Shown piece by piece: positions 6,916 through 47,540 of a DNA stretch of 64,000 nucleotides. Position 1 is the stretch's first letter, and every line of letters starts with the position of its first letter. The DNA is from an uncultured Gammaproteobacteria bacterium (GTDB lineage: Bacteria > Patescibacteriota > Microgenomatia > UBA10105 > UBA927), in the NCBI GenBank assembly GCA_964430295.1, contig CAYSEV010000003.1, positions 6,184-70,183 of the forward strand, given 5' to 3'. The notes under the pieces are model-generated. The model made no database searches, was not told the origin of the DNA, and saw only the letters and a list, made by a program, of their open reading frames with translations. The translations under genes were made by a program, and so were the position numbers.

Positions 6916-6932
6916 GAATGATATTCCGTATT

Positions 6933-28608: not shown

Positions 28609-29865
28609 ATGATTATCAACAGGTTATTCCCAAAACAAATAGTTAACAGTGTAGTAAAACTTCTTGATACAGTCGAGACTGACAACAGAAAGATGTTACA
28701 TCTTACTGCAAATGAAAACACACTATCCCCTCTTGCCATGCATTTTTATAAATCTTCACTGGGTATGCGATACGATTTTGGGAGAGGAAAAGATCGTGTG
28801 GTATCTGTAGATTTTTTTGGAAATTTTGCGGCAACAACCTATCCGGAATTACATGATATTTTTGACATTGCATACATAAATGCAAAATCAATGCTGCATG
28901 CACAGGAAGTCAATCTTCAATGTCTATCAGGTGCTCATGCAATGTTGTGCGCACTCATTGGATCAAGTGATCCTGGTGATGTGATAATGACTGTGAGAGA
29001 AGCTGATGGCGGGCATTTTTGTACTGAAAAAATTATTAAATCAATAGGTCGAAAACATGTGTTTGCAACATATGATGTAAAGAAACTGACATTTGATGTA
29101 GATAAAACAATTCAAACGTTTATAAAATCACATGCTAAGATTCTATACCTTGATACATCTGTTCTATTAAAACCGCATCCCCTAAAGGAATTAAGAGCAC
29201 GTCTCCCGAAGGACAGTATCATAATATATGATGCCAGTCATACATTAGGATTAATTATGAGCGGGTATTTTCAGTCTCCGCTTTTGGAAGGAGCGGATAT
29301 GATATCTGCTAACACTCATAAAACGTTCCCAGGTCCACATAAGGGAATATTAGCTTTTAAGACAAAAAAAATGGGTGACCATGTTAATTCGATTATTCAA
29401 AATAGTCTATATTCTACGTTTCATACTAATAATCAGTTAGCATTAGCCATTTCGATAATAGAATTGAAACTGTATGGGAAACAGTATGCAAAACAGATTG
29501 TTCATAACTCTAATGAATTAGGGCTTCAGTTGGAAAAAGCTGGATTTTCTATTAGAAAAGTTGATTCTGTTTATAGTCATAATCATCAGGTCCATATGTT
29601 TGTAGATAATGATGTTAGAAGTGTCGTAAAGCTATTGCGTGACAATGGAATTGCAGTAAGCACAAGTGATGCTTTAGGTGGAAAATCATTTATTAGGATA
29701 GGAACCCAAGAGATCACAAAAAGAGGAATGAAAGAATCAGAAATGGCTTATATAGCAAAATTAATACGAAATATTTTTGAAGGACGCACGATGTTGAATG
29801 AAGTGATTTCATTTAACAACAAATACGATAAAATTCTTTATTGCCTGCCGTTTGAAGAAAAGTAA
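28609..29865 (+). CDS. serine hydroxymethyltransferase-like PLP enzyme (SHMT/threonine-aldolase-like fold-type I)
   Basis: 418 aa. MLHLTANENTLSP is comparable to the SHMT ASEN motif. ANTHKTFPGPHKGIL is comparable to the SHMT T-T-H-K-T-L-R-G-P-R-G-G PLP-lysine block. Confidence 0.55.
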   Translation: MIINRLFPKQIVNSVVKLLDTVETDNRKMLHLTANENTLSPLAMHFYKSSLGMRYDFGRGKDRVVSVDFFGNFAATTYPELHDIFDIAYINAKSMLHAQEVNLQCLSGAHAMLCALIGSSDPGDVIMTVREADGGHFCTEKIIKSIGRKHVFATYDVKKLTFDVDKTIQTFIKSHAKILYLDTSVLLKPHPLKELRARLPKDSIIIYDASHTLGLIMSGYFQSPLLEGADMISANTHKTFPGPHKGILAFKTKKMGDHVNSIIQNSLYSTFHTNNQLALAISIIELKLYGKQYAKQIVHNSNELGLQLEKAGFSIRKVDSVYSHNHQVHMFVDNDVRSVVKLLRDNGIAVSTSDALGGKSFIRIGTQEITKRGMKESEMAYIAKLIRNIFEGRTMLNEVISFNNKYDKILYCLPFEEK

Positions 29866-31190
29866 TGAATATCCGTTATAAAGTCGTGTATACTTTTTTT
29901 TGTAACATGTGGTATAAAGAAAAATTTGTATAATATAGTCTTGATTTTTTTTGATCGCTCAAATTCAAAAACTGTATTTTTAGCGTATATCCAGTATTTA
30001 TTCTCAATCTCCTTCGAAAACCTTTTCATCTTGCCTTTATGAAGTATTACTCCACAGGTGAGGCTGTACGGAGAGCTTATTATCAATGAATTGGGATATG
30101 TTTCTTTAATAAATAGTATGAATTTCTCTTTTAACTTAAGTTGTTGGTTAATGATATTTCTAAAACCAGTTTTACCGTATCTGTGTATGACTGCCCATAT
30201 TGCCGCAGCGGATGCTCCTGGTCTTGATCCTAACAGTGTATTGTCCCGTATTGAAAATACCGGAACTTCTTTTTCAATCAGCTCCTTGAGTCGTTTTGAA
30301 CATAACACGACTCCCGCAGGATACGGAACAGCTGTAAATTTGGAAAAATCGACCGAATATGCATGGACATATTTTGAGTTTAACGGTCTATACTTGCTAT
30401 GTGAAAATGGCAATACGAATCCATCAAATGCAGCATCTATAATAATAGAGAAAAATATATCTTTGAAGTCTGCTTGAATTTTTTCAATCATAGAAGATAC
30501 AAGTTCAGTATCGTCGCTCGTTCCGGTTTCTGTGTACCCATGTGTCAACGAAATAATAAAGCCCCGCATTCCTGATTTAATTTGACTTCTTATTAATTGC
30601 TCGAGTGACGGTATATCAATGGTCCAAGATACACTGTTAAGTGGAGAATCTTTCATGCCAATAGACGTCATTGAACATGCTTTATCGATAGAGTAATGAG
30701 TAAGAGTTGTTTTTATAAGGCATATATTATCCAAAGGAATCTTTGTTTGAAGGTATGATTTAGCAATCCAAACAGAATATATATTCCCCTCCGTTCCTCC
30801 AGAAGATACATATCCTTCCAGCAATTTATGGTTTCCACCGTATAAATCTATTAATTTATGAATAACTTCATATTCTAATTGTCGAGTTCCACTTTTATCA
30901 TTTGTTGTGCTCCAGACTCCAAGATTATTAGGATTATAGCGTAGGAAGCTCCTATACACGTGTAACGCAAAAAAATTAACTTTAGGATACAGCGTTCCGA
31001 TATTATGAGTAAGATCACTTTTTCTTAAATCGATAATTGCAGAAAAAAGCCTCGCAATTACCCGCAAAAAACCTGCTGAGCGTTTAGGAAATTGTGTTTT
31101 TGTAAGAGGAGTGTAATATGATATTAGAGGGAGCATTGAATAATACCGTATTCGGTTACTCATTTTTTGCGAAAAAAGCTGAAAATTCAT
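29838..31190 (-). CDS. PLP-dependent group II amino-acid decarboxylase, paralog B
   Basis: 450 aa. VSSGGTEGNIYSVWIAKSYL. The overall architecture parallels the ORF at 25795 (e.g. TLTHYSIDKACSM vs SFTHYSILKAAKM). Confidence 0.65.
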   Translation of the reverse strand: MNFQLFSQKMSNRIRYYSMLPLISYYTPLTKTQFPKRSAGFLRVIARLFSAIIDLRKSDLTHNIGTLYPKVNFFALHVYRSFLRYNPNNLGVWSTTNDKSGTRQLEYEVIHKLIDLYGGNHKLLEGYVSSGGTEGNIYSVWIAKSYLQTKIPLDNICLIKTTLTHYSIDKACSMTSIGMKDSPLNSVSWTIDIPSLEQLIRSQIKSGMRGFIISLTHGYTETGTSDDTELVSSMIEKIQADFKDIFFSIIIDAAFDGFVLPFSHSKYRPLNSKYVHAYSVDFSKFTAVPYPAGVVLCSKRLKELIEKEVPVFSIRDNTLLGSRPGASAAAIWAVIHRYGKTGFRNIINQQLKLKEKFILFIKETYPNSLIISSPYSLTCGVILHKGKMKRFSKEIENKYWIYAKNTVFEFERSKKIKTILYKFFFIPHVTKKSIHDFITDIHYFSSNGRQ

Positions 31191-31205: not shown

Positions 31206-32189
31206 TTACCAACGGTAATGCACGTCATTTTTTACATAGGTATCATAGATATGTTTTATAGCTTTCATATTTGCCTCTGATAGCTTGGGTAAATCACTTG
31301 AAGCAGCATTTTCCTTTATTTGCAATGGTGTTTTCCCTCCAACGATAACTGTAGATACTGCGTCCTGCATTAAAATCCATTTAAGTGCAAACTGGGCCAT
31401 TGTATAATCTTTACCTTTAAGTGATTTAATTTTTCTGACTGCAGATAATCCTTTATAGAAATCAACACCTGCGAAAGTTTCTCCTTGATCAAATACTTCT
31501 CCGTGCCTATTAAAATTTCTATGATCATTTTTTGGGAATCTAGAAAATATAGAAAACTTTCCAGTCAAAAGGCCACTTGCAAGAGGCACTCTTACGATGA
31601 TGCCTATATTTCTTTTTTTTGCCTCTCTAAATAGAAGCTCCATAGGTCTTTGTCTAAACATATTAAAAATAATTTGTATTGTAGAAACATTTGGGTACTC
31701 TATTGCTTTAAGTGCCTCTTCGACTTTCTCGACACTCACACCATAAAAGCGAATTTTTTTCTTCTTCACCATCTCATCTAAAAATGAAAACACTTGTGGC
31801 ATGTAATATACTTCAGTTGGCGGTGTATGAAGTTGTAATATATCGATACATGAGGTATTTAAGTTCTTTCGACTCTGCTCTATATATGCGTGCATGTTGC
31901 TTTTTGTGTATGCATCTCTAGTATGTGGATCGGATTTTCTGCCTATTTTTGTAGCGACAATAATGCGTCTACCAGCATTTTGTATATATTCACCGATAAA
32001 TTTTTCACTTCTTCCGTTTCCATATATATCCGCCGTATCTATGAAATTTATACCAGTATCAGATATACTTGATAATGCTGTTCTAGCCTGCTCGTCCGAC
32101 ACAGTACCCCATCCACCCCCTATGCCCCAACTACCATATCCTATCTCAGAAACTTTATATCCGGTTTTTCCTAAAGTTCTATATTTCAT
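31206..32189 (-). CDS. aldo/keto reductase
   Basis: 327 aa. MKYRTLGKTGYKVSEIGYGSWGIGG...FIDTADIYGNGRSE is the classic AKR N-terminal signature. Confidence 0.85.
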   Translation of the reverse strand: MKYRTLGKTGYKVSEIGYGSWGIGGGWGTVSDEQARTALSSISDTGINFIDTADIYGNGRSEKFIGEYIQNAGRRIIVATKIGRKSDPHTRDAYTKSNMHAYIEQSRKNLNTSCIDILQLHTPPTEVYYMPQVFSFLDEMVKKKKIRFYGVSVEKVEEALKAIEYPNVSTIQIIFNMFRQRPMELLFREAKKRNIGIIVRVPLASGLLTGKFSIFSRFPKNDHRNFNRHGEVFDQGETFAGVDFYKGLSAVRKIKSLKGKDYTMAQFALKWILMQDAVSTVIVGGKTPLQIKENAASSDLPKLSEANMKAIKHIYDTYVKNDVHYRW

Positions 32190-32210
32190 AGATATTGTAA
32201 AATAAACACA

Positions 32211-33581
32211 TTAGTCCTCAATAATTTGAGCTGAAAAATATAGGTCACTTGAATGGTATGGTCGATTTTTGTTACACATAAAGCTGTATAACTTTCCCAA
32301 AAATGTTGCATCAAAGGCTTTTAATTCTGCCGCTAGTATATCCATTTCTGTCTTAAATGTCTTTCCGGCTGTACCATCCGTACGATCAAATATGTAAGAC
32401 ACGATATCATGTCTCTTTTTCTTTTCTATTACAGATTCACCAGACGTTTCAATATTTGTTATTATACGAAAGAGTTCACTAAAACCTCTTGCCGTATATG
32501 ATATTTTTTGAACTTCATGTATAGTCGGGAAATATTCACCCCATATCCCTTGAGATTTATCCGGATATAGAAAAATTGCAGGTTTACCTAGAGATAAAAA
32601 ATCCCCCGCTATGGTTGATAGATCTGTAACAAGAATGTCTGCTGCAATAAGTGTCTTATTCGGTCCAAGGTAGTTTGACCGTGTAGAATCATCAAAATAC
32701 GTATTTGCATATTTTTTGAGTGTTTTTATGATAGGGTCTTTTATTTGGTACTGATATATACAAATAGGATGAGGCCGAATGATTACATTAAAATTCATTT
32801 GTTTTGCATAAGAGCAAAAACGTTCTAAATTCCTAATATCATCTCGTTTTTTTCCTATCCCCCATATTTTTTGTGATTCCCAACTAGGGGCATAAACGAT
32901 CGTTCTCCTACTTGGATCTAGATTATACTCCTGTAATATTTTGTGCTTATCTAAGGTGTTTGTGTATAGCGTGTCATTTAATACTCTTCCTATGATTCGT
33001 ATTCGCTTATCGTTTGCATGTAGAGGTGTTCGCTTTATTACTTCATCTTTTAATAATGATCCAGTGACAAAAATTCTTGCATATTTAGAAAAAGATGGAA
33101 TATTATCTGCGTGAAAATACGGTGCAGGTCCAATTTCAAATAATTCACTATGAAATACCTGCACGATATTTTTTCGCATATAAGTTTCAATAATTGGCAT
33201 TGGCATATCTATCAACCAAATTGCACGATTTCCGTATATATTTTTAAGGAAGAGTACATATGGTATAAATGCACGTTGCCATTGTGAATGTGTTATATGT
33301 TCTGACGGCTTAAGAGTACAATATTCAGGTGAACAATGCCCCAAATAATGCGTTAGAAATGGCATGTTGAATAGATACTTGTTTTTAATCCATTTAGGAG
33401 AGTTATTATAACTTTGCGCATTTGTATATATCATTATCGGGAGAATTGAATTCGAATCTATTAAATGTTTATAGTAGGCGTCCATATTTCTACCACATCC
33501 TAGATCCGATTCAATCGCCATAATCATGCATGGAACTTTATTATTTCCCCGGCGAGTAAAACTGTTAAATTCTGATATCAT
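32211..33581 (-). CDS. CDP-glycerol/CDP-polyol phosphotransferase, TagB/TagF family (teichoic-acid-type polymerase/primase)
   Basis: 456 aa. IVYAPSWES compares with the TagF YAPTWR block, and VIIRPHP compares with the TagF KxHP block. The C-terminal GT-B-like half has the conserved His. Confidence 0.55.
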   Translation of the reverse strand: MISEFNSFTRRGNNKVPCMIMAIESDLGCGRNMDAYYKHLIDSNSILPIMIYTNAQSYNNSPKWIKNKYLFNMPFLTHYLGHCSPEYCTLKPSEHITHSQWQRAFIPYVLFLKNIYGNRAIWLIDMPMPIIETYMRKNIVQVFHSELFEIGPAPYFHADNIPSFSKYARIFVTGSLLKDEVIKRTPLHANDKRIRIIGRVLNDTLYTNTLDKHKILQEYNLDPSRRTIVYAPSWESQKIWGIGKKRDDIRNLERFCSYAKQMNFNVIIRPHPICIYQYQIKDPIIKTLKKYANTYFDDSTRSNYLGPNKTLIAADILVTDLSTIAGDFLSLGKPAIFLYPDKSQGIWGEYFPTIHEVQKISYTARGFSELFRIITNIETSGESVIEKKKRHDIVSYIFDRTDGTAGKTFKTEMDILAAELKAFDATFLGKLYSFMCNKNRPYHSSDLYFSAQIIED

Positions 33582-33645
33582 AGAATTAAATTATGAAGGA
33601 ATAAATATAGTGGGTAGTATACCTGAGAATAGTATCTATTAAAAT

Positions 33646-34275
33646 ATGAAGATTGCATTTATAGGGATGTCCGGGTGCGGTAAAACGTATTGGTCATCTA
33701 AAATACATAAATTAGGATATTCACTCATAGGGTGTGATGCACAGATTGGCAAAAAATTGTCAGGTGAAATGGCTGAGCTAACACGATCAAGTGGAACCGA
33801 AGACGTTTCGCGATGGATGGGACAACCTTTTGAGTCACAGTACGCTAAACATAGTCGTATGTATCTCTATTACGAAAATGAGGTAATGCAAGAAGTTATA
33901 TCTTTTGTTGAGCATTCTTCAGATGTTGCTAATATTGTTGTAGATACCACAGGTAGTCTCGTATATGTCAAAAAGTCAATTTTGCAAAAGCTAAAAAAAC
34001 AATTGACTTTTGTATACTTAAAATCTCCCCAATCACGAATAAAAACTATGATTCAACAGTATTTTGATGATCCAAAACCTATAATTTGGGGTGATTTTTA
34101 TGTAAAGAACAGTGTTGAGTCGAATATAGAATCAATAAAGCGATGTTATCCTTCTATGCTTGAGTATCGTAGCCGTATATACGAATCACTGGCAGACGTT
34201 ACATTGGATGTGGATAAATTATCAGACAATACTATTACTGCAGAAACGGTACTGAAAATGATTTCTCTCGATTGA
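33646..34275 (+). CDS. P-loop small-molecule kinase (shikimate-kinase/AAA_33-like fold)
   Basis: 209 aa. Walker A IAFIGMSGCGKTY lies right at the N-terminus, a size and layout like shikimate/gluconate kinases. The substrate is unknown. Confidence 0.5.
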   Translation: MKIAFIGMSGCGKTYWSSKIHKLGYSLIGCDAQIGKKLSGEMAELTRSSGTEDVSRWMGQPFESQYAKHSRMYLYYENEVMQEVISFVEHSSDVANIVVDTTGSLVYVKKSILQKLKKQLTFVYLKSPQSRIKTMIQQYFDDPKPIIWGDFYVKNSVESNIESIKRCYPSMLEYRSRIYESLADVTLDVDKLSDNTITAETVLKMISLD

Positions 34276-34294
34276 TATAAACATATGGAGACAT

Positions 34295-35044
34295 TTATGT
34301 CAGCCCCAAAATATGCATATTAATATCCTCTAAATCCTTGGGTGTGTCTACATCGCACCAGAAATCAGCAGTCGTATTATCACAATAGTAAACGCTATCT
34401 CCTTGGTCAATGATTTTTTGAAAAGCATACTCAGGAAATTCTTTATATTTTCGCTGTTTCATAATATCGTTTAATGACTGAATTACAACTGGACTTGCAT
34501 ATTTATCAACGTAGTCTATTCCCTGGGCTATCCCATATGCATCTGTAGCTGATATGTGTTTTCCGTATTCAATAACAGTCCCCGTCTTCTGGTTAACACT
34601 GACTGCAAAATCCTCATCGGTATTTTTCCTCCTTTGTTCAACTGCTGAAACTATACTTTTTTTGCTCTCAATAAGTCGTATCAAAATCTCCTTGTTGTAA
34701 TATAGATCTCCTGCCAGTCGAAAAAAATCTGAATTATATAATAACGGGCTCGCACAATAAAAAGAATATATACTATTTCGCTGAAGATAGTGTTTGTTAA
34801 ATACAAAAGTAAAATGTATATCAGGAAAAAACTTTTCTGTAAATTTCTTTATCTGATCTGCTTTATAACCTACGACTAATATAATATCTGATATTCCAAT
34901 TGTCCTTATATTATTTATGCTATACCACAACAACGGTTTTTCATGAACCATAAGGAGACTTTTATGGGTAATCCCGGAATAGGGCAACAACCTTCCCCCA
35001 TCACCGGCCAAGAGTATTACAGCTTTAGTCTTTGTTATATTCAT
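34295..35044 (-). CDS. alcohol/sugar-phosphate nucleotidyltransferase (LicC/IspD/TarI-like cytidylyltransferase)
   Basis: 249 aa. AVILLAGDGGRLLP is the G-x-G-x-R nucleotide-binding loop of the NTP_transferase fold. Its size matches TarI/LicC. Its start shares TAATG with the stop of the upstream methyltransferase. Confidence 0.6.
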   Translation of the reverse strand: MNITKTKAVILLAGDGGRLLPYSGITHKSLLMVHEKPLLWYSINNIRTIGISDIILVVGYKADQIKKFTEKFFPDIHFTFVFNKHYLQRNSIYSFYCASPLLYNSDFFRLAGDLYYNKEILIRLIESKKSIVSAVEQRRKNTDEDFAVSVNQKTGTVIEYGKHISATDAYGIAQGIDYVDKYASPVVIQSLNDIMKQRKYKEFPEYAFQKIIDQGDSVYYCDNTTADFWCDVDTPKDLEDINMHILGLT

Positions 35045-35961
35045 TATAATGTTTCAGGCCATCGCGACTTCAAAGTAAGGTTTATAAATCGGGAAATACG
35101 GTTTAGGTCTATCAGGTTCGATGCCGGTTTATGACATAGAATAATAGTCCTCCAGCTTCCTTTACTCCACGTTGACTCGTTATAGTTTCCATATAAATTT
35201 TGAATTTCAAAACCGACATGTTCAAGCATTTGTTTATACTGTTTAAGGGTATACTGAATCATATAGTAATGAAAATATCCTGATTTACCGTTCTTTTGCC
35301 ATTTTCTGTGGTATGAATCTAACTGAGCATCCTCGTAATATAAATCGGTATCTATAAGGTTGTATCCATCAACAGTATTCTTCTTGACGTATTTGTACAC
35401 TCCTGGGCGTACTTTTTTACCGTATTTCTTAATATACGAAACATGTTCATATGCATTAATAACATCAATCAAAAATTTTCCTCCAGGTTTGAGAGCATTA
35501 AATATTCGGTGAAGAACATCTATATTCTCTTCGTGTGCAAAATATCCAAAAGCAGAATATAAGGATAAAATAACATCATAGGTATTATGGTCAGCTAGTT
35601 CTCTCATGTCCTTTTTTATAAACGTAACTGATGAATTATTTTTTTTTGCCTCTTTTCTAGCAATTTTGAGGAAATAATCAGAATAATCCAGCCCTGTTAT
35701 TTTTAAATTTGCTTTTGATAGTTCAATTGCATGTCTTCCGTGTCCGCAACCTAAATCAAGGATATTATGTGTTGGACGTAGTGGAACTATTTTGCGTATA
35801 AACGAGGCTTCATCGCGGGAGCGGCTTTGAGATAAAACCGGATTATAAAGGTGGTAATATGTTGCTCCAAATTGTTTTTTCCACCAAGTTTTTGGAGTTT
35901 TTGATGGTAAAGAAAAAATAGAAGTCATAGTGTATATACGTTTGGTATATTTTGTATCCAA
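35044..35961 (-). CDS. class I SAM-dependent methyltransferase (Methyltransf_11/25-like)
   Basis: 305 aa. ILDLGCGHGRHAIELS is SAM motif I. It overlaps the upstream decarboxylase gene by 37 nt. Confidence 0.75.
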   Translation of the reverse strand: MDTKYTKRIYTMTSIFSLPSKTPKTWWKKQFGATYYHLYNPVLSQSRSRDEASFIRKIVPLRPTHNILDLGCGHGRHAIELSKANLKITGLDYSDYFLKIARKEAKKNNSSVTFIKKDMRELADHNTYDVILSLYSAFGYFAHEENIDVLHRIFNALKPGGKFLIDVINAYEHVSYIKKYGKKVRPGVYKYVKKNTVDGYNLIDTDLYYEDAQLDSYHRKWQKNGKSGYFHYYMIQYTLKQYKQMLEHVGFEIQNLYGNYNESTWSKGSWRTIILCHKPASNLIDLNRISRFINLTLKSRWPETL

Positions 35962-37196
35962 TTTTGAGCGATAGAATAGGTTAGAGCACCCTGATTAAGT
36001 ATTGTAACAACATCTCCGATATTCATATCTTTGGCATAACATGCATACCCCCATAAATCACGTGTTGTGCACAAATTTCCGTACATAGTATTTATAATTT
36101 CTTTGTCTGATGGTCTAGTCAGATTTATGGCCGGAAAGTATTCATACATATATCGCTGCCACCCGACCATATTTATGCCGCCATCAAGAATAGATACCGC
36201 AGTGTTTTTAATATCGACGATTGATAACACAATATGCATTGCCCTATTACAGATAATTCTGCCTGGTTCTGCATAGTAATCTGGTGTTATGAGAGGTTCT
36301 AAATACGTATGTATTGCTTTTGAGATCGCACTAGCATATTTTTTGAGTTCTATTGCTTCTCTTAGTTTAAATTCATTTGAAAATCTTCGTTTTACATCAT
36401 CATATGAACTATGTACGTTGTTGTGTGAATCTTTAGAGAATTCGTATGGGTAATATCCCTCTGATTCATACGGTTCAAATCCCCCACCGAAATCTATATA
36501 TTTTATAGTTTCTCTTTCTTGTTTAGAAAAGTGACTAAGTTGATCAGCTAATTCCTTAATACTTTCAACATATGCAACTGCATCTTTATTTCTGGATGCA
36601 TGAAAATGTATGCCCTGAATATGTATGTACGGATACTTGTAAGCCTGCTTCCAAAATACACGAAGCTGATCAATATCTATGCCGAATTTAACCCATTGCG
36701 GCAATGCTTTTACGTGTATACGTACACCAATGGTTATATGTTTTTTAAGATTGTTGGTTATTGTTCCTAATCGATCTAGTTCAAGAAAACTGTCAACGTG
36801 AATGCGTACATATTTTGTATGTTTAACCGCATATAAAAGTTCATGATTTTTTTTCCCTGGACTATAATATAGTATATTTTTACACCCTAATTTTATTGCA
36901 TCAGTAAGCTCAACGCCGCTTGCAACATCAAGACCATACCCATGTAAGAGTGCTTCTTTAACCAATGGTCGATAATTATTTATTTTATATGCATAAAACG
37001 GGTGAAAGTTAGGTATATGTGTTGAGAAAATATTAACAAAATTTTCTAAGTCCTCCTGAAGCGCCTGTTTGTCGAAGACATAAAAAGGAGTTTCATATTT
37101 TTTTGACAACATCAAGATTTTTTCACGGTTGTTTTTTGTAAAAGATTTCACAATCTTCACGAATTGTCGCTGATGTTTAATGTCGCCAGTTTTCAT
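35925..37196 (-). CDS. PLP-dependent fold-type III decarboxylase (Orn/DAP/Arg decarboxylase family)
   Basis: 423 aa. YAYKINNYRPLVKEALLHGYGLDVASGVELTDA is the N-terminal TIM-barrel PLP-Lys region. IDFGGGFEPY is the G-G-G-F/L motif. ATGA overlap with the ABC ATPase stop. Confidence 0.7.
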   Translation of the reverse strand: MKTGDIKHQRQFVKIVKSFTKNNREKILMLSKKYETPFYVFDKQALQEDLENFVNIFSTHIPNFHPFYAYKINNYRPLVKEALLHGYGLDVASGVELTDAIKLGCKNILYYSPGKKNHELLYAVKHTKYVRIHVDSFLELDRLGTITNNLKKHITIGVRIHVKALPQWVKFGIDIDQLRVFWKQAYKYPYIHIQGIHFHASRNKDAVAYVESIKELADQLSHFSKQERETIKYIDFGGGFEPYESEGYYPYEFSKDSHNNVHSSYDDVKRRFSNEFKLREAIELKKYASAISKAIHTYLEPLITPDYYAEPGRIICNRAMHIVLSIVDIKNTAVSILDGGINMVGWQRYMYEYFPAINLTRPSDKEIINTMYGNLCTTRDLWGYACYAKDMNIGDVVTILNQGALTYSIAQNWIQNIPNVYTL

Positions 37197-37948
37197 AGTG
37201 GAGACGTGTATTCAAGGTTCTTTCCTTGCATAGATTTATAGAATTGATCTACCAATTCTTTCGATCCACTGTGTTCAACCTGTCCATTTCTTAATACAAC
37301 AATTCTATTGCAGTTATTTTTTACATATGAAAGCCAGTGCGTCACCAAAAGAATGGTCGTCCCTTTTTTGTAAAGCATTTCAATCGTTTTTAACGCTTTA
37401 TTTTGGAATTTTTGATCCCCTACATACATACTTTCATCAAGAATAAGTATGTCAGGATCAGAATGAATAGTGATGGAAAAGCTTAGCTTCAATTTCATCC
37501 CATCAGAATATGTAAAAAGTGGCGCATCGATAAACTGTCCTACATCAGAATACTCTATAATAGAGTTAAGTTTTGATGTTATTTCTTTTTCTCTCATGTT
37601 AAGAAGCATCCCCATCAGATAGATATTTTGAATGCCAGTTAATTCCGGTCTAAATCCTGCTTCAAGATTGATCAACGATACTATTCTTCCGTGAGTTTCC
37701 ACAGTTCCGGATGTCGGTGTTGTCACCCCTGATATTATTTTCAATAACGTGGTTTTCCCCGATCCATTGGGACCAATAATGCCGACTCTCTCCCCCTTCA
37801 TGAACTGTAGATTTATATCCTTTAACGCCCAAAAAGATTCATTTCTTCCTTTAAGTATTTTTTCCATCAGTGTTGGTTTTTCATGATGGATTTCATATTT
37901 TTTACTAATATGTGTAAGTTTTATTGCTATAGTGTTGTTTTTTTTCAT
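37193..37948 (-). CDS. ABC transporter ATP-binding protein, polysaccharide/teichoic-acid export type (Wzt/TagH-like, short form)
   Basis: 251 aa. Walker A GIIGPNGSGKTTLL. Signature/Walker B region ILILDE. Co-operonic with an ABC-2 permease. Confidence 0.85.
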   Translation of the reverse strand: MKKNNTIAIKLTHISKKYEIHHEKPTLMEKILKGRNESFWALKDINLQFMKGERVGIIGPNGSGKTTLLKIISGVTTPTSGTVETHGRIVSLINLEAGFRPELTGIQNIYLMGMLLNMREKEITSKLNSIIEYSDVGQFIDAPLFTYSDGMKLKLSFSITIHSDPDILILDESMYVGDQKFQNKALKTIEMLYKKGTTILLVTHWLSYVKNNCNRIVVLRNGQVEHSGSKELVDQFYKSMQGKNLEYTSPL

Positions 37949-38844
37949 ATCCAGTCATCAAAGTTTTTACTTTCTTGTATAAAGATGTAAATACCAAGTG
38001 CAAACATAATGCCAATAACAATACAATTAGAGACAATCATCAGTGGTCCCGGCAACGCCGTACCTACGAATGCATGTTGAAGTAATTGAATTATTGAGGT
38101 GAGCGGATTCAGTCGCCAGAGCCATATATATTTTGATGGCATTTGTGTAAGCGGGTATACAATAGGACTGGCATAAAACCAGACGATCAATAGAGCTGAA
38201 ACAAAAAAATTAATATCCCTATAACGTGTATTGAGTGCAGATGTAAGTAAGCTTATCCCTGATGTAAATATACATAAGAGTACAATGGCAATCACGCTAT
38301 ATGGGAGTGAGTACAGTGTCATTGTTCCAATCGTTATTGTTGAAATAACAAACAACGCTAAGGCAGCAAGAAAATGTATCAAATTAGACATGATGATAGA
38401 GAGTGGTATGACTGCTCTTGGAAATGACGCTTTCTTAATAAGTGATCGTTCGTATACGATTGACGGTGTTGATTTGGATAATGAAAGTGAAAAAAAGTTC
38501 CATACAAGAAGTCCAATAAAAAGAAAATAGTTATAGTTTTTAATTGGTTCTTTGATAAATAATGGGAAAATGAATCCAATTATCAGCATTTGTAACAATG
38601 GATTTGCAACAATCCATACAAAACCGAAAACTGTATTTTTATATCTCGATTGCAATTCTGTTTCCGTTAATCTTGCAAGCAATTCAATAAATAGCTTCGT
38701 ATCTCTATTCATGGGTGTTATTATAGCCTTTATATTTGTTTTAGGTAATCCCTTTAGGAAGGTTATTTCAATACATATAGAATTTCTATGAACTATCATC
38801 CTCAAATTTCCCCTTGCATACCTCCAGAAATGCATGATATGCAT
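37945..38844 (-). CDS. ABC-2 type transporter permease (Wzm/TagG-like); real start probably Met45 (about 38712)
   Basis: Six TM helices. The N-terminal LARLTETELQSRYKNTVFGFVWIVANPLL is typical of the ABC-2 polysaccharide exporter start. The annotated start would overlap the upstream aminotransferase by 59 nt. Confidence 0.75.
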   Translation of the reverse strand: MHIMHFWRYARGNLRMIVHRNSICIEITFLKGLPKTNIKAIITPMNRDTKLFIELLARLTETELQSRYKNTVFGFVWIVANPLLQMLIIGFIFPLFIKEPIKNYNYFLFIGLLVWNFFSLSLSKSTPSIVYERSLIKKASFPRAVIPLSIIMSNLIHFLAALALFVISTITIGTMTLYSLPYSVIAIVLLCIFTSGISLLTSALNTRYRDINFFVSALLIVWFYASPIVYPLTQMPSKYIWLWRLNPLTSIIQLLQHAFVGTALPGPLMIVSNCIVIGIMFALGIYIFIQESKNFDDWI

Positions 38845-39634
38845 GCATTAATTTTTTCAACTCATCAGGTACAGAAACAAATTTGAAATTATTTATTTGA
38901 GCGATAGGAATAATATTAGAACTTGTGCTTGTTAAAAATGCGCCATCATAGTCAGAAATCTTGTCGAGAGGGATTGTTTGTTCTGACGTTTCAAAACCAT
39001 GCTTTTTTGCTATAAACAATACTGTTTGCCTTGTAACTCCCTCGAGCACATATTTTGCCGGTGGCGTCAATATTTTATTATTTTTTAATGCAAAAAAATT
39101 TGTCCTCGATCCCTCCAGAATACTATCATTTGAATCTGTAAAAAGCACGTCATAATCTCCCCTCTTTCTAGCTGCTGTAAAGTACAAATAGCTTTGAAGC
39201 ATATTCAGAGACTTTGCATTAGGGAGAAATCGTGTATATCTGACTGTATTTACGGATGCTCCATTGGTATACAATTTCCTATCCGGAAACAATGGCGCTA
39301 ACGGCAAAATATATATATTTGCGCTGTTATGCTTAACGTCTCCTATAAGTAAAATTTTAATATTAAAACTGGGCTGACAAGAGATTGTCTTTTCAATAAG
39401 AGAGCGTAGGAATGCTGAGATATCTTCCTGAGTGAACGTATGCGTTAATCCGAGAATTTCAGTTGATTTGAATAATCTTTGTATATGTTGTTCTTCAAAA
39501 TATATAATACCGTTACGCACTTTTAGTGTCTCGTATACTCCAAATCCATATTGATATTCAATACTATCGATTGGAATAGTAGCATTCGCTATAGGTTCTA
39601 GCTGTCCATTTTTTGAAAAATATGGAAATATCAT
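38786..39634 (-). CDS. class IV (fold-type IV) PLP aminotransferase (D-amino-acid/branched-chain aminotransferase or ADC-lyase-like)
   Basis: 282 aa. YQYGFGVYETLKVRNGIIYFEEQHIQRL is the class IV N-terminal E..K.. region with the catalytic Lys. The length fits the DAAT/ADCL subgroup. Confidence 0.7.
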   Translation of the reverse strand: MIFPYFSKNGQLEPIANATIPIDSIEYQYGFGVYETLKVRNGIIYFEEQHIQRLFKSTEILGLTHTFTQEDISAFLRSLIEKTISCQPSFNIKILLIGDVKHNSANIYILPLAPLFPDRKLYTNGASVNTVRYTRFLPNAKSLNMLQSYLYFTAARKRGDYDVLFTDSNDSILEGSRTNFFALKNNKILTPPAKYVLEGVTRQTVLFIAKKHGFETSEQTIPLDKISDYDGAFLTSTSSNIIPIAQINNFKFVSVPDELKKLMHAYHAFLEVCKGKFEDDSS

Positions 39635-39669
39635 AATATATACGATTAAAGTGTTCTATTAATACACGG

Positions 39670-40335
39670 TTGTTTTATGCATCTGCCTCGAAGATTGTAA
39701 TACATAATGATAATATACGATATATGTCTTTTATATACGGCGTAAGTATTCTCGCGTTGATTATATTATCACTTCCCCTTCTCATTTTAATTGTAATTCT
39801 TGGTTTTATATTCAATGGAAAGCCTATATTGTTTAAACAATTGAGAGTTGGGAAGGATGGCAATATATTTACAATTTACAAATTTAGAACAATGGTAAAC
39901 GATAGTGAAAAACAAAAAATGGATCTCATACGGTATAACGAAGCTGATGGACCCGTATTCAAAATTAAGAATGATCCACGTTATACACAAATCGGAAAAT
40001 TTTTAGCACATACTGGATTAGACGAATTACCACAACTTTGGAATGTTTTAAAAGGTGATATGGCTCTTATAGGCCCACGTCCGCTACCGGTAGATGAAGC
40101 AAAACGGCTTAAACCCTGGCAAAAAAAACGCCTTGGTATTAAACCCGGTATTATTTCCCCATGGATATTGCAGGGATATCACACGATGAGTTTTGATGCG
40201 TGGATGAGAAGTGATATTGCATACACCTCTGAGAAGTCATTTCTTTATGATGTTCGGTTGGCAATATCCGTTATATATTTGCTTCTCCGATTATTTATAA
40301 AAGAAATTTTCACATTGTATAGAAAACGTATATAG
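39670..40335 (+). CDS. initiating polyprenyl-phosphate sugar-phosphate transferase (small bacterial sugar transferase, PglC/WbaP-C-terminal type)
   Basis: 221 aa. KDGNIFTIYKFRTM ... GPVFKIKNDPRYTQIGKFLAHTGLDELPQLWNVLKGDMALIGPRP is a diagnostic PGT block. The likely true start is Met19 (39724). Confidence 0.85.
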   Translation: MFYASASKIVIHNDNIRYMSFIYGVSILALIILSLPLLILIVILGFIFNGKPILFKQLRVGKDGNIFTIYKFRTMVNDSEKQKMDLIRYNEADGPVFKIKNDPRYTQIGKFLAHTGLDELPQLWNVLKGDMALIGPRPLPVDEAKRLKPWQKKRLGIKPGIISPWILQGYHTMSFDAWMRSDIAYTSEKSFLYDVRLAISVIYLLLRLFIKEIFTLYRKRI

Positions 40336-40523: not shown

Positions 40524-43304
40524 ATGACTAATGTTGAAGCGTTAGAGCTTTCGGGAAAACAGTCGTCAAATGAAGAGATATTACAGCACCTCCATGATTT
40601 TGGTGTAACACTTTCTTCCGATAGAGACATACTTGCAGCCCAATTATCTGTTGCCTTCGATGCTATTCCACAAGGAGAATTATCTGAGATGGCGGTCCTT
40701 AATTGGGAAAAACAAGATGAACGATTTAGTCAGCTGTTGGCCTCAATTTCACCGGATGATCAGAAAATACGTGATGTCTGTGCCAGAACACCACACGCCG
40801 GTCCTCTTGGCAATATCTTGAGAACTCTTGAAAATCCTCTCCATGCTTCACCATCAAATAAAAAAAATGCTGAGCTATTGCTGGAAGAAGCACGCCTCCT
40901 GTCGGTGTTAAACGGTACTCATAAGAGTATGGATGATTATATCTCTCAGGGAACTCGCGTAGTAACTATCAAAGCACAGCTAAATGATGTCAGAAAGGCA
41001 CATGAGCTTATCACAACAAGAAATGGATATAAGCTGACAACACAAGAAGCAATAGCAGAGGCACGAGCCGTTCGTGAAAACCCTCTTTTGCCAGCTGCAC
41101 GATTTGTGAAGAAAGAATATAGAAAAGCGACTGATGGTGTCACGGGTGTTATATACGAACACCGCACGAAAGTAGAGTTAAGCCGTAAGAAAAAAGAAGC
41201 CAGCAGAGCTCGCATGCGTGAATATTCTCAATACGTTGACGCATTGGCTGCCAACATGCGATTTGATAAAGGAGAAAAGACTGCAGAACGACTCCTTGAT
41301 GCAAGTTCATTTGATTTGCCTTCATGGGTGAAACATGTCCAACTTGATCAATCTGTCGGACCTATACGATCCGATATATCAACACGAATAGGACATGTTC
41401 TGACACTTTCGTCAACTGCAAAACTTCCTTCTGATATTGATAAGGCGCGTACACCAGCTGAAGCATTGCAGATGCTTGCAATTTCACAAGCAAAGGTTTT
41501 GTTTCTGGAAAAAAATGCTCCAGACTATGTCACGATGCCTGGGTTCGCTGCGAAGCGAAATATATGGTTTTTTGAGCGTGAAGCTAAGAGAATTTTGGAC
41601 CAAGGTCTCGATAAACGAAGAAGTACGGCTTGGTTGAAAACTGCTGAGTTAACTGTTGCGTTTAGCGTTATTGCCACAGCATGCGCTCCAAAAACATCAC
41701 CAACAATTGTTGTTGAAAGGACACCTCCTGCCGGTTTAACGGCAGAGCCTCCTTCATCTGGTACACCCAAAACAGAAGCACCACAAGTTACCTCTCCTGA
41801 GGTAACTGTAATTAAATCTGAGTCCGGCTTGAACAAAACAAAAGTACTGACCACTTTAAATTCAGAGTCGTATAAAAAGCTTACGGCAGAAGACAAGAAG
41901 GCAGCACCAAATCTCGTACAGTTATTTGATGCACTGAAGGCTAAATTTGCCGAGGAAAAAACATCAATGAGTCCTGAAGATATTCAGGTCTTGTACCTGA
42001 GAATTTTTCAGGCAAAAACTGACAAGAATGAAGCGTTTGATTGGGAGGTTGCGATTGTTCCGCTCGAGAGTCCCGAAGGGACAAAACCCGGATTTCAATA
42101 CGCAAAAGTTGCATTTATCGACGCGGATGGAAATGTTGTCACACACAATGTGGTTATAAATGACAATGAACTCATAGACAAACAAACCGCCGAAGCAACT
42201 GCAACAGCAGATGTGACTGAATTTGCTACAGCACCCGCACCAAAGCCTGCGACACAAAAAGATACGTTTACAGCTCAGACTATGCGTGTTGTGGATGGTC
42301 CACATAAAGGACAACTGTTATTTGCCGTTACTACACTTGAGGATGGGACGTTGTTGTATCTCTATCTGGACCCAACTGATGTGACCAAAACGCTTACACT
42401 GGAAAGTAAACAACAAAGCAAACTGGCCGAGGTTTGGGAGTCGTTAGGTGTTACAACAGCGGAAGCAGCAGGAATAATTGAAAAGCCTGCCTTAGTATTG
42501 CCTGATAAAAAAACAGAGTTAGGATATACGAAAGACATGATGGGAAATTATGTAAAAGTGGAAAATGGATTCACATACATATGGGATGAAGAACGTGAGG
42601 CGGGATATAGGCAATATTTCAGTGGGTATATACTAGACTTTCGTCCAGAAATCAATTTGCCTGATTCTAAGGGTAAAAACACGTGGAATGATGGTTTTTT
42701 GACGGAAGCATATGTCGATGGTGCATTTCTTGGTGAACAGGAATTGCCTTCTGCTATTCGTCCAGAAAATTTAGATCCTACAGGGAAAATAAATGTCACA
42801 GATTTCTTCCAAACTTTAATGATGCAACATATGGTGGATAGAGGAATAATAAAAAGTGTTTCTGATTTTGAAACTGCAAAATTTTGGTTGACACACGATT
42901 ATCATATTGATTTTACGACAGGGAATGGAGCTGAAAAACAAAGCTTTGGTATTTGGGATGGCAGCAAGATAATTGTTCACATTCGCGCAGACGCTGAGGA
43001 ATTAAAAGCAAATATGGAAACCAATGGGTTTTCTGAAGCCAAGTCGTATACAGTATATGGTGAGGAAAATAGCTATATGGTTAAGTTGTGGACGAAAAAC
43101 GGTAATTTATATGTAGATATCGCGCCAACACTGCCGGCATCAAAGTGGACCAATATGCAAATTACAGAGATGATTATGTTTTGGGTTGCCGTATTTGATC
43201 AGGGACCAGATTTGAGCGCTCCGCAGTCTGGAGAAATGCTCAACAAAATCGTGTTAAATAACAAAGGGCAATTGACGCTAATAGAGTTTACTCCAAGGAA
43301 ATAA
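40524..43304 (+). CDS. large hypothetical envelope protein: ~370-aa cytoplasmic N-domain, single TM, Pro/Thr/Ser linker, ~500-aa extracytoplasmic C-domain
   Basis: 926 aa with no N-terminal signal peptide. Hydrophobic segment LKTAELTVAFSVIATACAP near residues 375-395, followed by the PT-rich linker KTSPTIVVERTPPAGLTAEPPSSGTPKTEAPQVTSPEV. No catalytic motif recognised. GC is distinctly higher than the upstream island. Confidence 0.5.
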   Translation: MTNVEALELSGKQSSNEEILQHLHDFGVTLSSDRDILAAQLSVAFDAIPQGELSEMAVLNWEKQDERFSQLLASISPDDQKIRDVCARTPHAGPLGNILRTLENPLHASPSNKKNAELLLEEARLLSVLNGTHKSMDDYISQGTRVVTIKAQLNDVRKAHELITTRNGYKLTTQEAIAEARAVRENPLLPAARFVKKEYRKATDGVTGVIYEHRTKVELSRKKKEASRARMREYSQYVDALAANMRFDKGEKTAERLLDASSFDLPSWVKHVQLDQSVGPIRSDISTRIGHVLTLSSTAKLPSDIDKARTPAEALQMLAISQAKVLFLEKNAPDYVTMPGFAAKRNIWFFEREAKRILDQGLDKRRSTAWLKTAELTVAFSVIATACAPKTSPTIVVERTPPAGLTAEPPSSGTPKTEAPQVTSPEVTVIKSESGLNKTKVLTTLNSESYKKLTAEDKKAAPNLVQLFDALKAKFAEEKTSMSPEDIQVLYLRIFQAKTDKNEAFDWEVAIVPLESPEGTKPGFQYAKVAFIDADGNVVTHNVVINDNELIDKQTAEATATADVTEFATAPAPKPATQKDTFTAQTMRVVDGPHKGQLLFAVTTLEDGTLLYLYLDPTDVTKTLTLESKQQSKLAEVWESLGVTTAEAAGIIEKPALVLPDKKTELGYTKDMMGNYVKVENGFTYIWDEEREAGYRQYFSGYILDFRPEINLPDSKGKNTWNDGFLTEAYVDGAFLGEQELPSAIRPENLDPTGKINVTDFFQTLMMQHMVDRGIIKSVSDFETAKFWLTHDYHIDFTTGNGAEKQSFGIWDGSKIIVHIRADAEELKANMETNGFSEAKSYTVYGEENSYMVKLWTKNGNLYVDIAPTLPASKWTNMQITEMIMFWVAVFDQGPDLSAPQSGEMLNKIVLNNKGQLTLIEFTPRK

Positions 43305-43353
43305 CGTCTCTCCTCTACTTGTAATTTCTTGTTTTTTCTACTACGCTTGAGGT

Positions 43354-43995
43354 ATGGCGTTTCGGAAAATTTGGATAGTATTGATACTTGTAACAATCAT
43401 AGCAGTACCCCTTATTTTTGCCTTCATTGTACCGCATATGGATGATTTGGTGCACACGGCCTCAATGCTTAAGGCATCTAAACGAAGAGTGGGATCAAAC
43501 TACAAGATTGTAAACACGATCCCGAACTATACCATTGAGCTAAAGGATACAGCGTATTTGGACTATATAACAGGACAATTGACTATTTTTTCACCTAATG
43601 GCGTTATTGATGTGGCAGCTAATTCAGGTCACCGTGAGGTTAAAAAGCGATATACGGTAACAGATCTTCGCATTGAATTCGTATCTAAACTGGATAGATA
43701 TATATTAGGATTGTCAGGAAATGAGACCTTTTCAAGTTGGGGTACATATGCTGTAGAAGGAAATGTGTTGGTGGTAAAAATTGCACTGAATTTTAATGAT
43801 AGTATGTTATCTTCTTCACCGACTGCCCCTGAAGAGGTCTTTCTTGACACCTTGTATCAGACGCTATATTTTGCCCATGGTGTCACATACGGAGTTGATT
43901 TTACTGAGGGATTTGAAAAAAACAAAAAAGACATGCTTAATTTTTTACGCACGGGTATATTTGCCTGGCCGGTTAAAATCTCAAGGAACTCATGA
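43354..43995 (+). CDS. hypothetical signal-anchored extracytoplasmic protein
   Basis: 213 aa. N-terminal IWIVLILVTIIAVPLIFAFIV. Translationally coupled to the next gene by an ATGA overlap. Confidence 0.5.
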   Translation: MAFRKIWIVLILVTIIAVPLIFAFIVPHMDDLVHTASMLKASKRRVGSNYKIVNTIPNYTIELKDTAYLDYITGQLTIFSPNGVIDVAANSGHREVKKRYTVTDLRIEFVSKLDRYILGLSGNETFSSWGTYAVEGNVLVVKIALNFNDSMLSSSPTAPEEVFLDTLYQTLYFAHGVTYGVDFTEGFEKNKKDMLNFLRTGIFAWPVKISRNS

Positions 43996-46320: not shown

Positions 46321-46328
46321 CACGTACT

Positions 46329-46646: not shown

Positions 46647-46696
46647 ATGGTTTGGAATACTCTGGTATTAGATTGTTGGGGTATTGAAATAGATAT

Positions 46697-47536: not shown

Positions 47537-47540
47537 TGCT

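Follow-up and report, generated by a model that had tools for sequence, protein, structure and literature searches.

A TagF-like phosphotransferase and a LicC-like nucleotidyltransferase in a glycan operon of a Microgenomates-group bacterium: a possible route to a phospho-amino-alcohol substituent

Introduction

Which phosphate-linked group is attached to the glycan built and exported by the gene module at positions 31206-40335 of the analysed DNA (the window, a 64-kb stretch of contig CAYSEV010000003.1)? An earlier note on this DNA read the module, with its TagB/TagF-family phosphotransferase, cytidylyltransferase, aldo-keto reductase, kinase, exporter and initiating transferase, as a pathway for a poly(polyol-phosphate) wall polymer made from cytidine diphosphate (CDP)-polyol, and named a Lic-like phospho-amino-alcohol pathway as the alternative. 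The analysis presented here favours a variant of that alternative: with a probability of about 0.5, the module makes, from an amino acid, a phospho-amino-alcohol that is methylated and CDP-activated and that the TagF-like enzyme would attach to a surface glycan exported by an ATP-binding cassette (ABC) transporter. The cell envelopes of Patescibacteria (the Candidate Phyla Radiation, CPR) are chemically almost uncharacterised, and the episymbionts among them rely on surface contact with their hosts.

Gene content and conservation of the module

Protein families were assigned by Pfam and NCBIfam profile searches, and negative results for the window cover its open reading frames (ORFs) of at least 120 aa. 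The ten ORFs of 31206-40335 and their families were confirmed as follows:

39670-40335, plus strand: small monotopic phosphoglycosyl transferase (PGT; Bac_transf, PglC/WbaP-C-terminal type; PF02397, E 2.5e-51; TIGR03025, E 7.5e-56)
38786-39634, minus strand: class IV aminotransferase (D-amino-acid/branched-chain type; PF01063, E 1.4e-43), first gene of the operon, accessory
37945-38844, minus strand: ABC-2 permease, Wzm/TagG type (PF01061, E 6.7e-21; NF050109, galactan Wzm, E 1.2e-21)
37193-37948, minus strand: ABC ATPase, Wzt/TagH type, 251 aa (PF00005), no C-terminal carbohydrate-binding domain
35925-37196, minus strand: group IV (Orn/DAP/Arg family; DAP, diaminopimelate) decarboxylase dependent on pyridoxal phosphate (PLP) (PF02784, E 1.2e-25; TIGR01048, lysA, E 9.4e-40, below cut-off)
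35044-35961 (ORF; start taken at 35928), minus strand: class I S-adenosylmethionine (SAM) methyltransferase (PF13649, E 1.7e-21)
34295-35044, minus strand: LicC-like nucleotidyltransferase (NTase; NTP_transferase, PF00483, PF12804; PDB 1jyk)
33646-34275, plus strand: P-loop small-molecule kinase of shikimate-kinase fold, family of homoserine kinases
32211-33581 (ORF; start taken at 33527), minus strand: TagF-like phosphotransferase, single-domain Glyphos_transf/GT-B (PF04464, E 7.5e-17)
31206-32189, minus strand: aldo-keto reductase (AKR; PF00248, E 2.7e-64), 21 nt downstream of the TagF-like gene

Translational coupling within the operon is tight. ATGA overlaps join the permease to the ATPase, the ATPase to the decarboxylase and the decarboxylase to the methyltransferase (the last one with methyltransferase start M12), and a TAATG junction links the methyltransferase and NTase genes. 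The single operon from 39634 to 34295 described in the earlier note, where the class IV aminotransferase went unnamed, is correct in its coupling. Since the TagF-like gene, the AKR gene and a group II decarboxylase gene (29838-31190) run on with gaps of 21 and 15 nt, the functional unit reaches leftwards past 31206, where the note had set the left border of the module. Several ORF starts as listed are probably too far upstream, the true starts being internal. Start M19 at 33527 gives the TagF-like protein the length of the 438-aa database protein P0001 (456 aa in the ORF version), the probable start of the methyltransferase is M12 at 35928, and that of the permease is M16 or M45 (38799 or 38712), with homologs of 254-260 aa.

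Thirteen loci encoding the TagF-like family, independent metagenomic sequences from Patescibacteria, were compared. The clustering is not due to chance, because the gene order recurs in independent contigs (L002, L008, L009, L012, L013 and L020) whose proteins are 41-88% identical. In 13/13 loci the TagF-like gene directly follows the LicC-like gene, with which it usually overlaps, and the ABC-2 pair and the small PGT are usually close by, the PGT gene adjoining the operon in divergent orientation in L002, L006, L008, L009 and L012. A methyltransferase gene is found in all loci but the minimal, Saccharimonadales-type L006 and L023, and immediately precedes the NTase gene in the window, L002, L008, L009, L010/L020, L012, L013, L021 and L022. 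The AKR gene always co-occurs with a gene for an enzyme of serine hydroxymethyltransferase (SHMT) fold, and the kinase and the group IV decarboxylase are present together in the window, L009 and L002. L008 and L012 encode neither of these two enzymes; what they have instead is a PLP enzyme of HisC/CobD-like type, together with a second gene that is DAP-decarboxylase-like. Phosphorylated amino-alcohols and phospho-amino acids are the substrates of the HisC and CobD families.

The TagF-like phosphotransferase

The assignment of 32211 to the TagB/TagF family, made in the earlier note from YAPSWE and RPHP blocks that are both found in the protein, was borne out by the profile search and the structure comparison suggested there. 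The Glyphos_transf match reaches 61.8 bits (gathering cut-off 22.1) over residues 190-403. Two histidines, H126 (QVFHG) and H253 (RPHP) in the numbering of P0001, are invariant in the 11-member family. In the HMMER alignment H253 is aligned with TarL H433, and the C-terminal invariant His of the known enzymes (TagF H584/TarL H433) contacts the donor phosphate (PMC10901376). The F125-H126 pair, likewise invariant, resembles the aromatic-His context of the catalytic base in TarL (W299-H300) and TagF (H444) (PMC10901376, PMC5974469), the equivalence of this first His being drawn from motif and spacing and not from a residue alignment; the two histidines are 127 residues apart here, 133 in TarL and 140 in TagF. 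The family profile A1, which aligned with PDB sequences over the C-terminal half alone, matches Cps3D with E 1e-06. In the AlphaFold2 (AF2) model (pLDDT 84.7) the four highest Foldseek ranks are taken by the C-terminal domain of TagF (3l7j/3l7i/3l7k), which is matched over the full length (E 4.5e-12, TM 0.56-0.63, about 440 aligned columns) at a sequence identity to TagF and TarL of about 15%.

According to the AF2 model and the Foldseek alignments, the 438-aa protein consists wholly of the GT-B domain and a C-terminal helix, and the N-terminal domain of the polymerases is not present; polymerising members of the TagF family have this additional domain (PMC10901376). The head group is most likely added singly or as a cap, and not as a long polymer. 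Behind the first His the loop sequence is HGELF, without the Lys that is conserved in polyol enzymes; this is a hint, though only a hint, against a polyol donor.

Distant TagF-like relatives with 25-30% identity and the same TDLSS motif were collected by pattern scans. Three independent ones (L014/L015/L037, L027 and L036) lie directly upstream of phosphoenolpyruvate (PEP) mutase genes, and because of these three independent neighbourhoods this wing of the TagF-like family is suggested to handle aminoalkyl-phosph(on)ate donors. The gene pairs are found at L014 5731-8310, L027 4212-6312 and L036 10001-12582; L014 also encodes IspD-like and DUF6564 NTases, and L036 a LicC-like NTase. PEP mutase is found in about 5% of genomes (PMC8942020), and a literature search found no description of TagF-like enzymes in phosphonate clusters.

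The LicC-like nucleotidyltransferase and its pocket

The best PDB match of the NTase is 1jyk (LicC, the pneumococcal CTP:phosphocholine cytidylyltransferase), with E 5.4e-15 and 58.6 bits over residues 4-223, whereas the next solved structure, the best sugar-1-phosphate NTase, reaches 35.7 bits (E 5e-08 or weaker) and PntC (6pd1) 20.7 bits (E 2e-03). Of the TarI/LicC-like cytidylyltransferase announced in the earlier note, the LicC-like part stands and the TarI-like part does not; the enzyme is not IspD-like or TagD-like either. The G-loop LAGDGGRL and the Lys of LicC are conserved. An RmlA/GalU-type sugar-1-phosphate NTase was considered and ruled out, as the structures of this type match only the nucleotide loop (residues ~4-70, E 1e-05 to 1e-06) against residues 4-223 for LicC; the GlmU/RmlA-type NCBIfam models score 23-77 bits versus cut-offs of 290-590, and no sugar-1-phosphate NTase is encoded in the 64-kb window. 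A PntC/phosphonate reading of the window was likewise ruled out (20.7 versus 58.6 bits, no PEP mutase in the window).

The roles of the choline-pocket residues of LicC, namely an aromatic box including Trp136, together with Asp105 and Asp192, have been described (PMC6697681), and LicC Asp105, as well as PntC Glu104, contacts the head-group amine (PMC6697681). The mapping of this pocket onto the present family is reliable for the N-terminal half only, MAFFT and HMMER disagreeing in the C-terminal half. The residue equivalent to Asp105 is Ala in 4/4 loci with a group IV decarboxylase and Glu or Asp in the 8 loci without it (RLAGD versus RL(E/D)GD, 12 loci), and a second position switches alike (FPEY versus YAE-x). 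The switch separates L002 (Ala) from L008 (Glu), whose NTases are 60% identical, and the NTase of L013 (Ala) is otherwise closest to that of L003 (Glu). The loci used (window, L002, L003, L006, L008-L010, L012, L013, L020-L023) form a small sample of related sequences. Because the Asp105 equivalent covaries with the group IV decarboxylase, the pocket, and with it the substrate, is suggested to track what the decarboxylase makes.

Kinase, group IV decarboxylase and methyltransferase

The P-loop kinase noted earlier is present at 33646-34275; it has the shikimate-kinase fold, with the P-loop and the catalytic Asp. Three homologs outside glycan loci (P0028, P0033 and P0022; 41-46% identity) were examined: the P0028 gene has those of homoserine dehydrogenase and threonine synthase on either side and that of aspartate kinase upstream, P0033 is encoded directly after threonine synthase, and the P0022 gene overlaps that of threonine synthase. 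Because 3/3 of these homologs adjoin threonine synthase, the family appears to descend from homoserine kinases. It weakly matches NF040667 (shikimate-kinase-like homoserine kinase), the window kinase scoring 32.5 bits versus a cut-off of 197.

It is worth recording separately that this shikimate-kinase-fold family, which has no Pfam assignment, occupies the homoserine-kinase slot of threonine operons in Patescibacteria-type contigs (L017 5960-10146; L018 6708-8471; L019 8001-9430). Judged by this position, its threonine-operon members are probably a non-orthologous homoserine kinase and would make O-phosphohomoserine.

The group IV decarboxylase has 6knh as its best PDB match (E 2.8e-22) and keeps the motifs YAYK, with the PLP lysine, GGGF, EPGR and LCTTRD (C-x-x-x-D). 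The last motif reads LCTTRD in the window, L009 and L002, and LCTTWD in L013. The enzyme would turn a phospho-hydroxy-amino acid into a phospho-amino-alcohol.

For the methyltransferase the best PDB match is 9ri2, the bacillithiol N-methyltransferase NmbA (E 1.4e-25), which N-methylates the cysteinyl amine of bacillithiol (PMC12719100), and the glycine/sarcosine N-methyltransferase model covers it nearly full length (E 1.1e-12). Identity with phosphoethanolamine N-methyltransferase (PEAMT) is not supported, only the core fold being matched (E ~3e-09 versus 1.4e-25 for NmbA). The protein probably N-methylates the amine of the head group.

Candidate precursor enzymes

Four further genes to the left of the module encode enzymes of amino acid and amine metabolism:

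29838-31190, minus strand: group II PLP decarboxylase, histidine/serine decarboxylase-like (PF00282)
28609-29865, plus strand: SHMT/transaldolase-like PLP enzyme of SHMT fold (TIGR04506, 259 bits; SHMT model, 184 bits)
27138-28484, minus strand: ligase of glutamine-synthetase (GS) fold, gamma-glutamyl-amine synthetase-like, accessory (PF00120, E 1.3e-88)
25795-27141, plus strand: second group II PLP decarboxylase, histidine decarboxylase (HDC)-like, accessory (PF00282; HDC model, E 5.3e-39)

The SHMT-fold enzyme is equally near the L-threonine transaldolase ObiH and archaeal SHMT (7k34, E 1.7e-43; 4bhd, E 4.6e-41; bacterial SHMTs about 1e-18), TIGR04506 being the fluorothreonine transaldolase model; it probably makes the hydroxy-amino-acid precursor. 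The group II decarboxylase at 29838-31190 matches the MfnA (E 2e-42) and HDC (E 1e-40) models below their cut-offs and, in PDB, HDC 7erv (E 3e-23) and plant serine decarboxylase 8jij (E 1.3e-19), and probably supplies an amino-alcohol or amine. The NCBIfam matches of the AKR are all generic and far below cut-offs; this enzyme would serve either precursor supply (aldehyde to alcohol) or by-product removal. The GS-like ligase matches NF045547 (gamma-glutamylputrescine synthetase) with E 1e-97 and 328 bits versus a cut-off of 650. Together with the second, HDC-like decarboxylase and the class IV aminotransferase, with which it is confined to the window and L009, it possibly makes an amine that is gamma-glutamylated or amide-linked. 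At the corresponding place L002, L008 and L012 have their second DAP-decarboxylase-like gene, in which the catalytic Cys motif is missing.

Exporter and glycan initiation

The exporter named in the earlier note, of TagGH/Wzm-Wzt-like ABC-2 type, is present as a permease (PF01061) and an ATPase (PF00005), which as a pair match polysaccharide and teichoic acid exporters best. The best NCBIfam models of the ATPase are those of TagH (E 3.7e-57 and 1.7e-54), followed by galactan Wzt (2.5e-47), all below equivalog cut-offs, and the galactan Wzm match of the permease likewise remains below its equivalog cut-off. The small PGT was recognised correctly as well and would initiate the glycan on undecaprenyl phosphate. 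In the minimal loci L006/L007, of Saccharimonadales type, a gene for an RGP protein (reversibly glycosylated polypeptide/UDP-arabinopyranose mutase-like) lies between the PGT and the ABC-2 permease (6719-7708).

Proposed pathway and alternative explanations

With the families, folds, translational coupling, conserved synteny and threonine-operon context of the kinase family established above, we infer the substrates, the order of the steps, CTP as the nucleotide, and single addition over polymerisation. The kinase would phosphorylate the side-chain hydroxyl of a hydroxy-amino acid, with homoserine as the first candidate and serine, threonine and 4-hydroxythreonine as alternatives. The group IV decarboxylase would then remove the alpha-carboxylate, giving 3-aminopropyl phosphate from homoserine or phosphoethanolamine from serine, and the NmbA-like SAM methyltransferase would N-methylate the amine. 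The LicC-like enzyme would use CTP to form CDP-X. A glycan hydroxyl, assisted by the His pair of the TagF-like enzyme, would attack the beta-phosphate of CDP-X, releasing CMP and leaving a phosphodiester-linked zwitterionic group. The glycan itself would be started by the small PGT on undecaprenyl phosphate, extended in the cytoplasm by the neighbouring glycosyltransferases and exported by the Wzm/Wzt-type ABC-2 transporter. The SHMT/transaldolase-like enzyme, the group II decarboxylase and the AKR probably supply or recycle precursors. Candidates for the head group are phosphoethanolamine, phosphocholine or a homoserine-derived aminopropyl phosphate. The Lic-like alternative of the earlier note hence fits better than its polyol polymer, yet in altered form: the kinase appears to be derived from homoserine kinases and is not LicA-like, the transferase is TagF-like and not LicD, and Trp136 of LicC is replaced.

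A more specific version has a low probability. In it a recruited homoserine kinase, an O-phosphohomoserine decarboxylase of DAP-decarboxylase-like type and the NmbA-like methyltransferase would turn homoserine into N-methylated 3-aminopropyl phosphate ("homocholine-like"), a zwitterionic head group not described before, which would then be CDP-activated and transferred by the TagF-like enzyme in place of LicD. A literature search found no description of this gene combination.

Several observations weigh against the proposed amino-alcohol pathway. The NTase is only 21-29% identical to LicC, and in the mapping described above Trp136 is replaced by Asp/Glu family-wide, Asp192 by Gln and, in the window, Asp105 by Ala. 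Because the position of Trp136 is Asp/Glu throughout the family, a quaternary ammonium group is not indicated by the pocket, and neither phosphocholine nor even an amine head group can be taken as proven. Among the substrates of LicC-like enzymes are also non-amine phosphates, namely glycerol-2-phosphate (Gtp2) and phosphoglutamine (Cj1416). The four glycan-locus kinases form a clade of their own, in which the second Asp of the CDDLIE motif of the threonine-operon members is lost, and their substrate may have changed, to judge from the residues; homoserine and related hydroxy-amino acids are candidates. The scheme does not close in every locus, because L013 has the decarboxylase without the kinase and L020 has neither kinase nor HisC-like gene within 8 kb. 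The minimal loci L006 and L003 contain the NTase, TagF-like and ABC genes without precursor genes and could rely on some common metabolite, for instance glycerol phosphate. Nor does the pathway strictly need the AKR, the class IV aminotransferase, the GS-like ligase or the extra decarboxylases. Glycan operons, moreover, often mix unrelated functions, and translational coupling is no proof of a single pathway.

The polyol polymer of the earlier note would require the AKR to reduce a keto- or aldo-sugar phosphate or a CDP-ketose, the LicC-like enzyme to make a CDP-polyol and the TagF-like enzyme to polymerise it on a lipid-linked primer ahead of ABC export, while the amino-acid enzymes would serve other decorations. 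It agrees with the confirmed Glyphos_transf family and TagF fold, with the TagH-like ATPase, with the AKR gene next to the TagF-like gene and with the minimal loci, and LicC-type NTases can activate polyol phosphates. This explanation is nonetheless unlikely. The NTase is LicC-like, none of TagD, TarI/IspD, TarJ, TagO and TagA is encoded in the window, so that both the CDP-polyol enzymes and TagO/TagA-type primer genes are missing from it, the TagF-like protein has neither the N-terminal domain of the polymerases (PMC10901376) nor the conserved donor-loop Lys, and the AKR matches are generic throughout. Furthermore, the decarboxylase and the methyltransferase are translationally coupled to the NTase, whose pocket residue covaries with the decarboxylase and not with the AKR. 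In an intermediate scheme, which is rather improbable, the donor is an amino-polyol phosphate with a free hydroxyl, for example serinol phosphate or 3-amino-2-hydroxypropyl phosphate formed from 4-hydroxythreonine via transaldolase, kinase and decarboxylase, and the TagF-like enzyme builds a short cationic or zwitterionic oligomer. The SHMT-fold enzyme, as near ObiH as SHMT and always accompanied by the AKR, would suit it; homoserine kinases accept 4-hydroxythreonine, and the HisC-like alternative could make serinol phosphate from dihydroxyacetone phosphate (DHAP), like Cj1437. Against it, the acceptor aldehyde has no direct support, processive polymerisation is hard to reconcile with a single-domain enzyme, and the scheme shares the uncertainties of the proposed pathway.

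The module may also interleave two unrelated functions: the LicC-like and TagF-like enzymes would attach a scavenged head group (such as host phosphocholine, phosphoethanolamine or glycerol phosphate), and the kinase, the decarboxylases, the methyltransferase, the GS-like ligase and the aminotransferases would make amide-linked or other amino-acid-derived substituents for that glycan, as in the capsule amidation of Campylobacter jejuni. The minimal loci manage without precursor genes, the accessory gene sets differ between loci, and two AsnB/WbuX-like amidotransferases and the GS-like ligase point to amide chemistry. Against this division, which seems improbable, stand the ATGA/TAATG coupling that ties decarboxylase, methyltransferase and NTase together, the methyltransferase that accompanies the NTase even in the small loci L013, L021 and L022, and the covariation of the NTase pocket residue with the presence of the decarboxylase. 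The least probable explanation by far is an ordinary O-antigen or capsule locus, with 34295 as a sugar-1-phosphate NTase and 32211 as a conventional glycosyltransferase. PF00483 is indeed the top Pfam family of the NTase, GlmU- and RmlA-type NCBIfam models match it (all far below cut-offs), and the fold search with the TagF-like model also returns UDP-GlcNAc 2-epimerases, which share the GT-B fold. Yet the RmlA/GalU match ends after the first ~60 residues while that of LicC spans residues 4-223 (E 5e-15), no hexose pathway genes adjoin 34295, and 32211 exceeds the Glyphos_transf threshold with the two invariant histidines. Neither outcome that the earlier note had named as its undoing, a 32211 outside Glyphos_transf or an RmlA/GalU-type enzyme with a full hexose pathway at 34295, materialised.

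Genomic setting

The window opens with dnaN and dnaA, and rnpA, yidC and jag are located at 45958-47996. The stretch between dnaA and the rnpA side is low in GC (~0.34 versus ~0.41 in the flanks). This low-GC island is rich in glycosyltransferases, Wzy_C proteins and AsnB/WbuX-like amidotransferases, also encodes an epimerase and a radical SAM enzyme, and has the module as its right-hand end. The glycan island, ~36 kb (3900-40335), splits dnaN-dnaA (1096-3780) from rnpA-yidC-jag, origin genes that are usually contiguous. Its two glutamine amidotransferases, AsnB-type and WbuX-like N-acetyl-sugar type, and its radical SAM enzyme (10086-11894, 16357-18360, 5911-6915) indicate further unusual sugar modifications in the island.

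Downstream of the PGT, at 40524-45710, three proteins are encoded: one of 926 aa without Pfam match, one of 213 aa that starts with a hydrophobic helix and one of 572 aa with DUF7305. DUF7305 and/or large unannotated proteins adjoin the PGT also in L002, L008, L009 and L012 and are possibly surface proteins tied to the glycan. A NAGPA-domain protein (phosphodiester glycosidase, "uncovering enzyme") at 59666-60856 could act on phosphodiester-linked glycan substituents.

The reduced-genome, uncultivated lineage supposed in the earlier note is in keeping with the available relatives: the valyl-tRNA synthetase (ValRS) at the window end is 65-71% identical to proteins of Candidatus Gottesmanbacteria, the closest named relatives, DUF4012 is present in the window, and one related locus comes from Candidatus Roizmanbacteria. 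Because of the ValRS relatives, the Roizmanbacteria locus and DUF4012, the organism is placed, by its sequences, among the Microgenomates-group CPR bacteria. The DnaA of the window and the DnaA protein P0043 are 90% identical; between L009 and the window the identities of the module proteins are only 53-88% (kinase 53%, TagF-like 58%, LicC-like 61%, ABC ATPase 88%). If P0043 and L009 share a contig, the island either changes far more quickly than the core genome or undergoes exchange, like surface-antigen loci.

Significance

What the analysis predicts is concrete: the ABC-exported glycan should bear an N-methylated amino-alcohol in phosphodiester linkage. The locus opens the envelope chemistry of CPR bacteria to testing. 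In other bacteria, adhesion as well as immune or host recognition are known to be governed by zwitterionic epitopes of such a type. Should the prediction hold, TagF-family enzymes would be found to transfer non-polyol head groups, a homoserine-kinase lineage would have been recruited into glycan chemistry, and a de novo, choline-independent bacterial counterpart of the Lic pathway would exist; the kinase and decarboxylase route to amino-alcohol phosphates would be of possible biocatalytic interest. The homocholine-like version, if true, would stand as the first bacterial route, soluble and independent of choline, to a choline-like glycan epitope. Should the prediction fail, what is left is a clearly delimited CPR glycan module that is conserved and includes an unusual TagF-like subfamily.

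Comparison with known systems

Wall teichoic acid synthesis (TagB/TarF, TagF/TarL, TagGH) and Cps3D-type capsule polymerases share with the module the Glyphos_transf GT-B fold, a pair of histidines, probably catalytic, and an ABC-2 exporter, as well as, we infer, a CMP-releasing phosphotransfer. In contrast to the teichoic acid pathway, the window lacks TagO, TagA, TagD and TarIJ, and initiation would be carried out by a PglC-type PGT instead. The TagF-like enzyme of the window possesses the GT-B domain only, like the primases and unlike the polymerases, and its donor is probably not a polyol. In Pnt phosphonate tailoring (PEP mutase, decarboxylase, 2-aminoethylphosphonate (AEP) transaminase and PntC; PMC6697681) a LicC-family NTase also activates a small aminoalkyl-phosph(on)ate for surface glycans; the window differs in the lack of PEP mutase, and its head group would be a kinase-made phosphate ester.

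The proposed order, phosphorylation followed by decarboxylation, is that of cobamide linker synthesis, in which the threonine kinase PduX and CobD lead to aminopropanol phosphate, and also that of Cj1436/Cj1437 of C. jejuni (serine-phosphate decarboxylase and DHAP transaminase). Differences from these routes relate to the kinase, which has the shikimate-kinase fold, to the decarboxylase, which is a fold-type III, DAP-decarboxylase-like enzyme, and to the fate of the CDP-activated product, which would pass to a glycan and not to a corrinoid or an amide. In L008 and L012 the enzyme of the HisC/CobD family that replaces the kinase and the group IV decarboxylase recalls CobD. The eukaryotic serine decarboxylase/PEAMT/CTP:phosphocholine cytidylyltransferase (CCT) route to CDP-choline, known from plants and Plasmodium, shares decarboxylation, phospho-base N-methylation and CTP activation, and a serine-decarboxylase-like group II enzyme is present in the window. 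However, the methyltransferase is remote from PEAMT, the NTase is of LicC and not CCT type, and the product would go to a glycan and not to a lipid.

The same logic, to phosphorylate, to activate with CTP and to transfer phospho-X to a surface glycan, underlies the Lic-1 system of Streptococcus pneumoniae and Haemophilus influenzae, composed of the LicB permease, the LicA choline kinase, LicC and LicD. The NTase of the window is a LicC homolog, in which LicC Trp136 and Asp192 are not conserved, and three of the four Lic-1 parts are replaced. No match to the LicB, LicD and APH/choline-kinase (LicA-type, protein-kinase-like fold) families was found in the window; in their stead the kinase has the shikimate-kinase fold and the transferase is TagF-like. 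For Lic-1, choline has to come from outside the cell (PMC10434233), whereas the decarboxylases and the methyltransferase of the window suggest de novo synthesis of the head group from an amino acid.

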